Below, one piece after another: positions 22,651 through 63,976 of a stretch of 64,000 bases of DNA. Each line of letters starts with the position of its first letter. The stretch's first letter is position 1. Source of the DNA: Eledone cirrhosa (Eukaryota); the NCBI GenBank assembly GCA_964016885.1, contig CAXHJY010000301.1, positions 1 to 64,000 on the forward strand. Direction: 5' to 3'. The notes beneath the pieces are model-generated. The model saw nothing but the letters and a program-made list of their open reading frames with translations. It was not told where the DNA came from and made no database searches. A program made the translations under genes and the position numbers.

Positions 22651-23179
22651 TATATATATATATATGTATATATATATGTATATATATATATGTATATATA
22701 TATATATATATATATGTATATATATATATATATGTATATATATATATATATATATGTATATATGTATATATATATATATATATGTATATATATGTATATA
22801 TGTATATATATATGTATAAATATATATATGTATATATGTATATATATATATATATATGTATATATATATATATATGTATATATATATATATATGTATATA
22901 TATATATGTATATATATGTATATATGTATATATATATGTATAAATATATATATGTATATATATATATATATGTATATATATATATATATATATGTATATA
23001 TATATATATATATATGTATATATATTTAATGCTCTGAAATAGCGATATATATGTGAAGACAAACATAGAATATTCGAAAATATTCTGTATGTTTATAATA
23101 AACATTTTGAAGACCTAATCGCTATAGAATAGAATACGTCACGTATTACAATTTGAGATTCTCGATAAAAGCAAGGGAA

Positions 23180-23222
23180 GTAACCTACGCGTTTCATTCT
23201 TATTAGAAATCATCAGGATTAC
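23180..23222 (-). ncRNA. Type I hammerhead ribozyme (family 1, copy 1)
   Basis: Minus strand: GUAAUC CUGAUGA uUUCU-aaua-AGAAu GAA AC-gc-GU A GGUUAC; GUA cleavage triplet. Confidence 0.85.
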
Positions 23223-23491
23223 ATATCCAGTGCTTTTATCGAGAATGACACAGCTAGAGACTTATAGAATACTTAGCTGTGTACAGGAACTGGTTTGAAA
23301 GAGCAGTTGCCGGTCCGGCAGAAATTAGAATTTGGATTTAATGCTCTGAAATAGCGATATATATGTGAAGACAAACATAGAATATTCGAAAATATTCTGT
23401 ATGTTTATAATAAACATTTTGAAGACCTAATCGCTATAGAATAGAATACGTCACGTATTACAATTTGAGATTCTCGATAAAAGCAAGGGAA

Positions 23492-23534
23492 GTAACCTAC
23501 GCGTTTCATTCTTATTAGAAATCATCAGGATTAC
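23492..23534 (-). ncRNA. Type I hammerhead ribozyme (family 1, copy 2)
   Basis: Same motif as 23180-23222. Confidence 0.85.
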
Positions 23535-23803
23535 ATATCCAGTGCTTTTATCGAGAATGACACAGCTAGAGACTTATAGAATACTTAGCTGTGTACAGGA
23601 ACTGGTTTGAAAGAGCGGTTGCCGGTCCGGCAGAAATTAGAATTTGGATTTAATGCTCTGAAATAGCGATATATATGTGAAGACAAACATAGAATATTCG
23701 AAAATATTCTGTATGTTTATAATAAACATTTTGAAGACCTAATCGCTATAGAATAGAATACGTCACGTATTACAATTTGAGATTCTCGATAAAAGCAAGG
23801 GAA

Positions 23804-23846
23804 GTAACCTACGTGTTTCATTCTTATTAGAAATCATCAGGATTAC
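23804..23846 (-). ncRNA. Type I hammerhead ribozyme (family 1, copy 3; stem III ACACGU)
   Basis: Same motif with one substitution that breaks the ACGCGU palindrome. Confidence 0.75.
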
Positions 23847-24030
23847 ATATCCAGTGCTTTTATCGAGAATGACACAGCTAGAGACTTATAGAATACTTAG
23901 CTGTGTACAAGAACTGGTTTGAAAGAGCGGTTGCCGGTCCGGCAGAAATTAGAATTTGGATTTAATGCTCTGAAATAGCGATATATATGTGAAGATATGT
24001 ATATATATATATATGTATATATATATATAT

Positions 24031-24523
24031 ATGTAAGTATGTATGTATACGTACATACATATATGTATACAGACGTACAGTAGCATGCATATATATATAT
24101 ATATATATATATACACATATATACATACAGGTACACATACATATATGTACGTATCAGTTTAGCGGACACTTATTATAACGCCCACTTTGTCCGTTTGTAA
24201 ACAAACTGACAGCCTGAATTTATGCCGTACAGTGTTAAGGCAACCACGTCACCTTTTTGTTCAACACTGACACAGGAACGATGTACTAGTTTCAAGCTTG
24301 TTAGCTATCATCAGCACCGTATACCCTTCTGCCAGATGGTTGAACGTTCGAACGTATGTGTACCTGTATGTATATATGTATATATATATATATATATATA
24401 TATATGCATGCTACTGTATGTCTGTATACATATATGTATGTACGTATACATACATACTTACATTTAAGTAAGTGCCGTACTAAGAGTGAGAAATGAAATT
24501 TCGTTTTCATTTGATTACAACTT
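24031..24523. mobile_element. Small fold-back element with 110-bp inverted arms, a hammerhead and a one-sided tail
   Basis: Arms 24031-24140 and 24354-24463; unique tail 24464-24523. Confidence 0.7.
24279..24319 (-). ncRNA. Type I hammerhead ribozyme (family 2)
   Basis: CGGUG CUGAUGA uAGCU-aaca-AGCUu GAA AC-ua-GU A CAUCG. Confidence 0.85.
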
Positions 24524-24650
24524 ATATATATATGTATATATATATATATATATATGTATATATATATATATATATATATGTATATATATATATATATATA
24601 TATATATATATATGTATATATATATATATATGTATATATATATATATATA

Positions 24651-59474: not shown

Positions 59475-59886
59475 GAATAATTGCCTTATGTTGTTTATTA
59501 CATAATAATAATAATTAAGCTCTGTTGCTTACATAGAGCACTCTTTTTTCCTGGACTTTTCCGATGGAATTACTTCATTTATGTATATATATATATATAT
59601 GTATATATATATGTATATATATATATATATATATGTATATATATATGTATATATATATATATATGTATATGTATATATGTATATATATATATATATGTAT
59701 ATGTATATATATATATATGTATATATGTATATATATATATATATGTATATGTATATATATATATATATATATATGTATATATATATATATATATATGTAT
59801 ATAACTGAGCACACAAATCACACAGAGAAACAAAATGGCGTAGGACAGAAGAAAGGAAAGGCACAGAAACAAAGAGAGGAATCCCC

Positions 59887-59931
59887 AGTCACTGAAGAGG
59901 TCACAGAGTGTGTGACGAAAGGACTATGACT
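59887..59931 (+). ncRNA. Type I hammerhead with an extra nucleotide after A9 (family 9), in insert 59803-60152
   Basis: AGUCA CUGAAGA g GUCACA-gagug-UGUGAC GAA AG-ga-CU A UGACU. Confidence 0.68.
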
Positions 59932-60152
59932 ATATATAAACAACTATCTGGTTGTGGAACCAACCAACCAACCAGAAATTTATAAATTTGTAGATTTGTA
60001 AATTTATAAATTTATAAATATATAATAAATTGAAGTGAAAGCAACTGGTGCGTGTGTTTCTTATTGGCAACATGACCCTCCCAAAGTATAACAATATCGG
60101 TTTCAACACACGATTTCAGATAAAGAATCTTGCTAAACAAATTCAGAAACGA

Positions 60153-62174
60153 TATATATATACATATATAATATATATACATACATATATATATATATAT
60201 ATATATATACATATATATATATATATACATATATATATATATATACATATATATATATATATACATATATATATATATATACATATATATATATATATAT
60301 ACATATATATATATATATACATATATATATATATATACATATATATATATATATACATATATATATACATATGTATATATATATATATGTATATATATAT
60401 ATATATGTATATATATGTATGTATATATGTATATATATATATATGTATATATATATATGTATGTATATATATATATATGTATGTATATATGTATATATAT
60501 ATATATGTATATATATATATGTATGTATATATATATATATATATATATATATGTATGTATGTATGTATGTATATATATATATATGTATGTATATATATGT
60601 ATGTATATATATATATGTATGTATATATATATATGTCTTTATATATATATATACATATATATATATATACATATATATATATATACATATATATATATAT
60701 ACATATATATATATATACATATATATACATATATATATATATACATATATATATATATACATATATATATATATACATATATATATATATATATATACGT
60801 ATATATATATATACATACATATATATATATATACATACATATATATATATATACATACATATATATATATATATATATATATATATATATACATATATAT
60901 ATATATACATACATATATATATACATACATATATATATACATACATATATATATACATACATATATATATATATATATATATATATACATATATATATAT
61001 ATACATATATATATATATACATACATATATATATATATATATATATACATATATATATATATACATATATATATATATATACATATATATATATATACAT
61101 ATATATATATATACATATATATATATATACATATATATATATATATATATACATATATATATATATATATACATACATATATATATATATACATACATAT
61201 ATATATATATACATACATATATATGTATATATATATATATATATGTATGTATATATATATATGTATATATATATATATATATATATATATATATATGTAT
61301 GTATATATATATATGTATATATATATATATATATATATATATATATATATATGTATGTATATATATATATGTATGTATATATATATATGTATGTATATAT
61401 ATATATATATGTATGTATATATATATATATATATGTATGTATGTATATATATATATATATATATATATATATATATATATATATATACATATATATATGT
61501 ATGTATGTACATATATATATGTATGTATGTATATATATGTATGTATATATATATATATATATATATACATATATATATATACATACATATATATATATAT
61601 ATATATATACATACATATATATATATACATACATATATATATATATATATATACATACATATATATATATATATATATATACATATATATATATATATAT
61701 ATACATACATATATATATATATATATATATATACATACATATATATATATATATACATACATATATATATATATATACATACATACATATATATATATAT
61801 ATACATACATATATATATGTATATATATATATATACATACATATATATATGTATATATATATATGTATATATATATATATATACATACATATATATATGT
61901 ATATATATATATGTATATATATATATATATATATATATATATATATATGTATGTATATATATATATGTATGTATATATATATATGTATGTATGTATGTAT
62001 ATATATATATGTATGTATATATATATATATATATATATGTATGTATATATATATATATATGTATATATATATGTATGTATATATATATATGTATATATAT
62101 ATGTATGTATATATATATATATATATATATATATATATATATGTATGTATGTATATATATATATATATATATAT
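60153..62174. repeat. ~2-kb (TA)n array with alternating TACA and TATG blocks
   Basis: Directly visible. Confidence 0.96.
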
Positions 62175-62647
62175 GTGATTTTGGATGGCCATTGACTCTT
62201 AAGAGCTCCTTTGCCCTTTGCCCTTTAGCCTTAGTCAAGGCAGAATTCTAGGAGAAGGAAAACTCTGATATAACACCTGCAACCCTGATGGTATCCAATG
62301 ATGTTGACTTGTTCTTCTTTTTGGTAAATAGCATCTTGGTTAAGAGAGTGGGACTGGCTTTGTGCAGTGCCTTTGCTCACTATAAAAGCTTCACGGCACA
62401 GGCATTGCTTTATATCTGGAGATCTCTCTGCACTTGTCCTCACATGGGCCCAGCACTATGTGTCAATAATTGTCCTACCATGGGCCTAGCACTATGTGTC
62501 AATAATTGTCACAGGTGTAGTGTTTGTACCAGAGGTTTCAAGTCGCTGGCTGGACTAAAAAGTCACACTCGTTCAGCGCTTCGGTAGGGGTTATCCTACA
62601 TGGATGTAAAGTAGTGGCCGTACTCGAAAACGAGTTGGCAGCCACCA
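62175..62647 (+). mobile_element. Third copy of the RTE-derived non-autonomous element, with 5' inversion
   Basis: 62221-62647 is the reverse complement of 7515-7912, whereas 62175-62220 matches 7925-7970 in the same orientation. Confidence 0.8.
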
Positions 62648-62860
62648 TATATATATGTATGTATGTATATATATATATATATGTATGTATGTATATATAT
62701 ATATATATATATATATGTATGTATGTATGTATATATATATATATATATATATGTATGTATATATATATATATATATATATATATATATATATATGTATGT
62801 ATGTATATATATATATATATATATGTATGTATGTATGTATATATATATATATATATATAT

Positions 62861-62915
62861 ACTCTTTTACTCTTTTACCTGTTTCAGCCATCCGGCTGAG
62901 GCCATGCTGGGGCAC
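62861..62915 (-). mobile_element. Extreme 3' tip of a retroelement with (GTAAAAGA)n tail
   Basis: actcttttactcttttacctgtttcagccatccggctgaggccatgctggggcac between TA arrays; family assignment from memory only. Confidence 0.45.
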
Positions 62916-63747
62916 ATATATGTATGTATATATATATATATATATATATATATATATATATGTATGTATATATATATATATATATATATATATATATATA
63001 TATATATATATATATATATATATATATATATGTATGTATATATATATGTATGTATATATATATATATATGTATGTATATATATATGTATGTATATATATA
63101 TATATATATATGTATGTATATATATATGTATGTATATATATATATATATATATATGTATGTATGTATATATATATATATATATATATATATATATATATA
63201 TATATATATATGTATGTATGTATATATATATATATATACATATATGTATGTATGTATATATATATATATATATATACATATATGTATGTATGTATATATA
63301 TATATATATATATACATATATATATATATGTATATATATATATATATATATATATACATATATATATATATGTATATATATATATATGTATATATATATA
63401 TATATATGTATATATATATATATATATATGTATATATATATATATATATATATATATATGTATATATATATATATATATATGTATATATATATATATATA
63501 TATGTATCTATATATATATATGTATATATGTATATATATATATATATATATATATATGTATATATATATATATGTATATATATATATATGTATATATATA
63601 TATATGTATATATATATATATGTATATATATATATATGTATATATATATATATGTATATATATATATATATATATGTATATATATATATGTATATGTATA
63701 TATATATATATGTATATATATGTATATATATATATATATATATATAG

Positions 63748-63976
63748 GAACCAGTAAGACCCCGACAGCTGAGCTCAAGCCGTTTCGACGGCTAATTCTG
63801 GACATATACATACATATATATATGTATGTATATTCTGCGTCCAGAATTAGCCGTCGAAACGGCTTGAGCTCAGCTGTCGGGGTCTTACTGGTTCTTATTA
63901 CCCACTCTACTACCTCAAGTATTGAGTACTTTGGTGCGTTATGGTCCACCTGGTTCCTTACCACATTTCCTTCGTT
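63748..63976. mobile_element. Tiny fold-back element with the 3' half of a hammerhead and a one-sided tail
   Basis: Perfect 56-bp arms 63748-63803 / 63839-63894; tail 63895-63976. Confidence 0.75.

Follow-up and report, generated by a model that had tools for sequence, protein, structure and literature searches.

The first 64,000 nucleotides (hereafter the window) of the 216-kb contig CAXHJY010000301.1, from the 3.0-Gb genome of Eledone cirrhosa (assembly GCA_964016885.1), contain a series of hammerhead ribozyme (HHR) motifs between positions 23026 and 63976, in a TA-rich part of an ~81-kb intron of a GALNT10-like gene. The 16 motifs and one half motif reported there by an earlier reading made from the letters alone (the sequence-only reading) belong to ten insertions of ten families, the count being inflated by tandem units and inverted arms. 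In our interpretation, which we hold with considerable confidence, seven of these insertions are 5′-truncated ends of coding Penelope-like elements (PLEs) and three are non-coding tandem elements that would have been pasted in by the same enzymes, through a mechanism that we infer. The features are as follows.

23026 to 23995, minus strand: family A, non-coding 312-bp unit in 3.1 tandem copies; HHRs at 23180-23222, 23492-23534 and 23804-23846, minus strand
24031 to 24522, minus strand: family B, non-coding ~467-bp unit with an internal TA tract, a two-armed truncated insertion; HHR at 24278-24320
28873 to 31389, unstranded: family C, two inverted arms, 3′ untranslated region (UTR) of a coding PLE of putative Neptune/Nematis type; HHRs at 29010-29047 (minus) and 31281-31318 (plus), U3-A8 core
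34075 to 39146, plus strand: family D, 5′-truncated putative Hydra-clade PLE; open reading frame (ORF) piece at 34880-36115 with GIY-YIG, inverted arm at 34075-34878; HHRs at 34123-34169 (minus) and 38945-38991 (plus), U3-A8 core
41986 to 46137, unstranded: family E, palindromic two-armed putative Hydra-clade PLE; GIY-YIG pieces at 43680-44111 (minus) and 44096-44602 (plus); HHRs at 42190-42236 (minus) and 46045-46091 (plus), C at core position 4
49425 to 49700, minus strand: family F, 276-bp 3′ end of a putative Hydra-clade PLE; HHR at 49465-49510
49965 to 50819, minus strand: family G, non-coding 483-bp unit in 1.8 tandem copies; HHRs at 50035-50118 and 50518-50601, minus strand, with a long stem II insert
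56690 to 59579, plus strand: family H, 5′-truncated putative Hydra-clade PLE; ORF end at 56691-57545, microsatellite-rich long 3′ UTR; degenerate HHR copy at 57943-58001 (G at the cleavage site), complete HHR at 59418-59477
59804 to 60152, plus strand: family I, 3′ end of a coding PLE; HHR variant at 59887-59931
63747 to 63975, plus strand: family J, two-armed 3′ tip of a putative Hydra-clade PLE, truncated inside stem II; half HHRs at 63760-63791 (minus) and 63851-63882 (plus)
12501 to 12644, plus strand: GALNT10-like (polypeptide N-acetylgalactosaminyltransferase) exon upstream of the HHR region; tblastn with amino acids (aa) 90-145 of the protein, 82%
17743 to 17905, plus strand: GALNT10-like exon preceding the ~81-kb intron; PF00535 E=1e-9, 98% to Octopus bimaculoides GALNT10
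contig 99042 to 99236: next GALNT10-like exon 3′ of the intron, exon order from protein mapping

A type I descriptor (core YYGANRA ... GAAA ... UH, with at least 4 bp in stem I, 2 in stem II and 1 in stem III) gave 14 matches in the window (23180, 23492, 23804, 24278, 29010, 31281, 34123, 38945, 42190, 46045, 49465, 50035, 50518 and 59418), all at motifs listed above, and none in positions 1-23025. Forty dinucleotide shuffles of the TA-masked region yielded 0-1 matches each (mean 0.2), which rules out a chance origin of the motifs. The copy at 57943-58001 has no complete core: its cleavage position is occupied by G in every one of 39 matches at the collected loci (overlapping loci being unmerged); since hammerhead cleavage follows a UH rule, the 57946 motif is probably inactive. 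At 59887-59931 the full core is present with one extra base before stem II and is missed by the descriptor; an unpaired base at this place has been described for PLE hammerheads (PMC4209133). Thus, of the 16 complete cores announced by the sequence-only reading, 14 stand by the descriptor and 59887 stands as an extra-base variant, while 57946 falls. The half motif and its inverted copy each represent the 3′ half of a genuine type I motif whose full form is found in longer genomic copies of family J. A spurious half motif is ruled out by one genomic locus together with a follow-up search that revealed the complete motif and its Hydra parent; a search with the half-motif pattern gave 468 matches, which among the first 100 listed were mostly junction artefacts.

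Covariation supports the same conclusion. Core positions 3 and 8, which are free in the descriptor, covary among the 160 distinct motifs from all collected loci (113 C-G, 25 U-A, 4 U-G, 3 C-A, 15 other); kin share states, so that the Fisher value overstates the significance, and the U-A pair was found in at least six unrelated sequence groups. Stem III is self-complementary in 107 of 138 motifs, which is what dimer folding would lead one to expect. When 11 motifs were aligned, 88% of the stem cells were paired and 10 of 13 pairs showed double changes, a score that none of 500 shuffles reached, slid controls being 27-41% paired. The rows of this alignment are descriptor matches, so stem pairing is partly built in, and the family C row is displaced by one base, which makes its 3-8 pair there invalid. 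Both a density above shuffled sequence and stem covariation among genomic copies, on which the sequence-only reading had staked its ribozymes, came out in its favour. As far as sequence can tell, the motifs are real type I hammerhead cores, and cleavage is predicted.

Self-comparison of the window revealed how these motifs are grouped: each of the pairs 29010/31281, 34123/38945 and 42190/46045 sits on the two inverted arms of one insertion, tandem units account for 23180-23804 and for 50035/50518, and 57946/59421 share one element. The earlier tally of nine families plus a half motif was correct, but its 16 motifs do not stand for as many events, there being ten insertions. Families were traced by genome searches, in which the best 40 candidates per DNA query were scored, and by fetching longer loci. 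Best genomic matches are 94-100% identical. With the reservation that these searches rank the closest matches at the top, the families are apparently young and their insertions recent. Coding PLEs account for ten of the 16 motifs and for the half motif, the remaining six falling in three non-coding families. Judged from the window alone, the inserts at 28873-31389, 49425-49700, 59804-60152 and 63747-63975 would pass as non-coding, but all four are 3′ UTRs of coding PLEs. The many diverse non-coding passengers of the sequence-only reading are therefore reduced to three families, while its GIY-YIG PLEs targeting (TA)n gain support from parent ORFs and TA flanks, and its non-coding tandem elements do share the insertion footprint of PLEs.

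Families D, E, F, H and J are Hydra-clade PLEs as judged from clade motifs. They share a C-terminal GIY-YIG with a CxCx5C linker, CxxC and CxH, and no CCHH; their 3′ repeat contains a hammerhead, and they are inserted into (TA)n. RWK is present in H and RWR in E, F and J, with DKT in E, F, H and J; the family D pieces begin downstream of the RWK-type and DKT motifs. Their tandem spacing is 3.5-5 kb rather than below 3 kb, so the length typical of the clade is exceeded. Pfam detected GIY-YIG weakly in D and E and missed the Hydra reverse transcriptases (RTs) altogether, and nearly all proteins that a search for homologues brought up were unnamed. The open piece of D spans 719 aa (locus L314), and open frames reach 832 aa in E (L162 and L164), 844 aa in F (L306/L307) and 714 aa in many copies of H; the parent of J consists of 512- and 275-aa pieces with RWR, DKT, YRDD and CxCx5C (L358/L359). 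The 3′ UTR of H (57546-59579) contains ~1.7 kb of microsatellite-like sequence and the duplicated dead hammerhead as fixed element parts, so some "microsatellites" here spread by retrotransposition. Most copies of J (63747-63975, L281-L300) are ~140-bp tips truncated in or near their own stem II loop. This suggests a strong RT stop or an RNA break at the stem II loop, although best-match selection favours short copies. At L326:3379-3846, a 234-bp tandem joins the tail, 5′ UTR and start codon of family J to the 3′ half hammerhead; it looks like a family J deletion derivative resembling a nascent retrozyme that lacks a full core. A 110-bp repeat in four copies lies at 37638-38076, within the 3′ UTR of D.

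Families C and I carry a Cx4CxxC linker, which falls within the Cx2-5CxxC pattern of Neptune and Nematis, and by their motifs they would be putative PLEs of this type. CCHH is clear in C, and its first H is replaced in some copies of I. Full copies of C encode a 409-aa ORF1 and a 775-aa RT-endonuclease (RT-EN) with RVT_1 and GIY-YIG Pfam matches; the upstream ORF (L301:2853-4079) had no match in Pfam. The parent of I is a ~4.07-kb unit with a 1167-aa open frame, a DKS motif and a long N-rich N-terminus.

The units of families A, B and G have a GC content of 34-39% and one type I hammerhead each, with longest ORFs of 34, 70 and 73 aa, respectively, and on these sequence features they fit the description of non-LTR (long terminal repeat) retrozymes. 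Family A gave 206 matches at the 40 scored candidate places, the best of them 96-100% identical and many tandem and two-armed. In arrays L010, L012, L020, L209 and L329, every unit of an array, on either arm, carries the same variants. A single RNA, perhaps circular, would explain this as their source, but so would a homogeneous source array.

The insertions of each of the nine families analysed terminate at two fixed 3′ ends past the cleavage site, at the following distances (short end, long end, in nucleotides).

Family A: 130, 165
Family C: 75, 141
Family D: 52, 159
Family E: 44, 208
Family F: 46, 141
Family G: 75, 185
Family H: 38, 109
Family I: 168, 228
Family J: 17, 97

When two-armed insertions with TA at both ends were compared, one short and one long end were found in 65 of 65 pairs from eight families (pairs with an unclassified end being excluded), and the arrangement was again short-long in all five inspected sequences of family A arrays. 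Sixteen of the 18 ends, all except two that belong to family A, show an overlap of 3-7 nt between read-through RNA and TA target; TAT is found at 4.4% of the positions in these 3′ ends. In vitro work on the Poseidon element of Anolis has shown that two internal RT start sites define the tail, that both strands are cut and that uncut RNA serves as template (PMC11167929). By analogy, the two-end pattern would be the PLE "tail", explained by two internal RT start sites.

We propose that the GIY-YIG endonuclease cuts both strands within a (TA)n tract and that each 3′-OH would then prime RT inside the element RNA at either of two positions, which lie 17-168 nt (short end) and 97-228 nt (long end) past the hammerhead cleavage site; priming would probably be aided by base pairing of the TA primer with the RNA over 3-7 nt. 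Both cDNAs would end prematurely and be joined head to head, which would produce the inverted arms. Since copies continue across the cleavage site, the RNA used as template would be uncut or religated. The hammerheads themselves are predicted to be slow and to act as dimers, and would cut tandem transcripts into unit-length RNA. In the non-coding families, the tandems probably originate from rolling-circle RT of a circular monomer. TA remains on either side of an insertion, so a long TA tract would gather many families with time. The DNA itself shows the motifs with their parent elements, the TA on their flanks, the tandem and inverted arms and, for every family, two fixed 3′ ends; trans-mobilisation of the non-coding families is argued mainly from the PLE footprint of A and G.

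Several observations weigh against this interpretation. Rfam 15 gave no hammerhead match at the gathering score in the window and none at E<=10 in two stretches searched alone; in E-value mode on the whole window, the 150 of 642 rows listed are all miRNA models on TA tracts. Of the two motif searches that the sequence-only reading had proposed, Rfam thus matched none of its 16 motifs and the descriptor recovered 14. In single-strand folding, nine of ten motifs were without significant stability, and for several the hammerhead fold is not the minimum-energy structure. Cleavage, RNA circles and expression of these families are predictions, PLE minimal hammerheads cleave weakly (PMC4209133), and eight of nine predicted retrozyme dimers from Xenopus failed to cleave (bioRxiv 10.64898/2026.07.22.740005). 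The two ends of family B were read by eye only, and the automatic end-classifier called family A long-long in four pairs whose sequences themselves are short-long. The anole PLE starts at sites without homology to the cut DNA (PMC11167929), unlike the overlap seen here. Comparison of A, B and G with the seven coding families returned a single match (E=0.049) and no clear sequence link, and neither the three different units of L207 nor the variants confined to subsets of units in L329 fit one monomer circle.

We also asked how the window compares with the rest of the genome. As background we took forty stretches of 10 kb each, located at round coordinates of 15 large contigs. These gave 50 matches, or 44 after removal of six from one AT-rich satellite (L124), and five shuffles of them gave 0, 0, 0, 2 and 1. 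The background density is therefore 1.1 per 10 kb (bootstrap 0.7-1.6), about 1 per 9 kb, and extrapolation from these 40 stretches to 3.0 Gb gives ~3.3 x 10^5 motifs (2.0-4.8 x 10^5). With 14 matches in 41 kb the window reaches ~3 times the background mean, and the rest of the contig has 16 in 150 kb. TA arrays make up 32% of the window versus 5.3% of the background sample, matches per TA run are 0.17 versus 0.10, and matches rise with the number of TA runs (Spearman 0.45). Most of the 27 motif signatures in the background sample (L106-L145) come from families that the window lacks, which means that hammerhead families are far more numerous in the genome as a whole. What the window shows is a genome-wide state in a TA-rich place; the locus is not special, and to call it a cluster was an overstatement.

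These data bear on the reading of the locus as a special cluster, a local community of mostly diverse non-coding ribozyme passengers with a few PLE helpers. ORF pieces are seen in the window only in D, E and H, and 14 matches in 41 kb are reached by only 0.9% of four-stretch background draws, which speaks for such a community. However, C, F, I and J trace to coding PLEs, the 14 matches represent eight insertions, nine matches are reached in 10% of draws, and the TA share and matches per TA run given above also speak against a cluster; a passenger community is already largely refuted, and we regard it as very improbable. A somewhat stronger competitor, although still an unlikely one, holds that A, B and G are 3′ ends of undetected coding PLEs expanded in place by unequal exchange, with neither an RNA circle nor trans-mobilisation. 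Only the best 40 candidates per search were scored, some arrays have variants in subsets of units, a satellite route has been proposed (bioRxiv 10.64898/2026.07.22.740005), and the 234-bp tandem derivative of family J exists. On the other hand, read-through enters the next unit and never an ORF among the matches listed and the loci inspected, and the arrays are young, two-armed and present on many chromosomes, with fixed short and long ends and TA flanks, which points to fresh retrotransposition of each array.

Finally, the motifs could be inert relics, or the host could have taken them over to cleave its pre-mRNA and thereby control GALNT10. Within the intron, 21 descriptor hits comprise nine in sense and 12 in antisense orientation; the nine sense matches and the degenerate 57946 motif would suit such a scenario, but the absence of strand bias gives no sign of host selection. 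Copies are 97-100% identical to dispersed family members, as recent insertions would be, and the core covariation indicates selection at the level of the element and not of the locus. We give hardly any credence to relics or co-option, and retain the interpretation that coding PLEs and non-coding tandems were inserted by the same enzymes.

Mapping of the O. bimaculoides GALNT10 protein placed exons in order at 10364, 12498, 17740 and then from 99042 onward. The proposal of the sequence-only reading that the region is intronic therefore holds, and a region outside an intron is ruled out by the GALNT10-like exons on either side (17743-17905 and 99042-99236). The intron and its surroundings contain other repeats. 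A long interspersed nuclear element (LINE) RT fragment (RVT_1 E=7e-32) at 20524-22648 is flanked by two TA arrays, and six young RTE-like LINE 3′ pieces (24651-26100, 31508-33946, 41296-41734, 46686-48486, 52087-53475 and 53798-56178), which have (ATG)n tails and a PHD finger following the RT, are placed in TA arrays, so TA tracts also attract elements without hammerheads. A ~465-bp repeat at 62180-62645, also found at 7492-7925 and 8161-8591, has a fixed end against TA/ATGT and is abundant, with matches in nine of 40 background stretches; it gave no match to the type I hammerhead descriptor and presumably resembles an RTE 5′ UTR. A minisatellite with 59 copies of a 24-bp unit occupies 10647-12069.

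The kinds of element found here are already published; the families are further examples, and the locus alone is ordinary. C-terminal EN+ PLEs of the Hydra clade with HHRs and a (TA)n preference have been described, including Hydra-1_Obim from O. bimaculoides (Craig et al. 2021, PMC8557442). Families D, E, F, H and J resemble them in having a single RT-EN ORF with RWK/RWR, DKT, CxCx5C, CxxC and CxH and no CCHH; they likewise carry a hammerhead close to the 3′ end, insert into (TA)n, form tandem and inverted arms and have a tail at one end (PMC8557442). They differ from that description in forming five distinct young families in one genome, in having 3.5-5 kb units with long 3′ UTRs where the clade is "generally short" (<3 kb), in tails of ~70-165 nt versus 30-40 bp, and in N-rich inserts in three ORFs and U3-A8 and C4 core variants (PMC8557442). 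The Hydra-1_Obim hammerhead given in the supplement of the same paper differs in sequence from all ten found here. Beyond that paper, our literature search, which covered only a minority of subscription papers, found no study on octopus hammerheads or retrozymes, and a recent curated repeat annotation of Octopus vulgaris does not mention ribozymes in its main text. Families C and I, which both sit in (TA)n, share with Neptune and Nematis the Cx4CxxC linker before a C-terminal GIY-YIG, C also having the CCHH pattern; C, which has a DKG motif, differs from them by its separate 409-aa upstream ORF, and I by its DKS motif and long N-rich N-terminus (PMC8557442).

The motifs resemble the minimal PLE hammerheads (Cervera and de la Pena 2014, PMC4209133) in their type I fold, short helix I, palindromic helix III, unpaired base before helix II, U3-A8 covariation and opposite-strand pairs, and in that most come from truncated PLEs. 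Counts there are ~2,000-9,000 per genome (4,000 in coelacanth, 9,000 in Xenopus) versus our estimate of 2-5 x 10^5 with another descriptor. Up to 120,000 hammerheads have been reported in axolotl, more than 6,000 in a coral and ~5,000 in a mussel (PMC7229834), again with different descriptors, so the estimate for this 3.0-Gb genome stands against 120,000 in the much larger axolotl genome with the same caution. It is conceivable, if rather doubtful, that this is the heaviest hammerhead load yet described (~1 per 9 kb, ~300,000), driven by recently active Hydra-clade and other PLEs that prime by telomerase-like 3-7-nt pairing at two fixed UAU sites, the same route copying retrozyme circles. If so, thousands of sense intronic copies would cut pre-mRNAs or yield abundant small circular RNAs.

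Like the non-LTR retrozymes of metazoans, A, B and G are non-coding tandems of 312-483 bp units that coexist with PLEs (PMC7229834; bioRxiv 10.64898/2026.07.22.740005). They differ by carrying the two-end, inverted-arm PLE footprint in (TA)n, by being known here from DNA alone, and by having no pseudo-LTR (pLTR) parent among the seven coding families. A PLE origin of retrozymes has been proposed in both of these reports, the accessible parts of which name no cephalopod; one footprint common to young coding and non-coding families would be genomic support for the mobilisation of retrozymes by PLEs. The Poseidon element of Anolis (Frangieh et al. 2024, PMC11167929) shares with the families described here two start sites downstream of the hammerhead, an AT-rich target and run-through copies. 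Its start sites are not homologous to the target, whereas 16 of 18 ends here overlap TA by 3-7 nt, and the present families supply intact natural Hydra ORFs and defined candidate priming sites for direct biochemistry.

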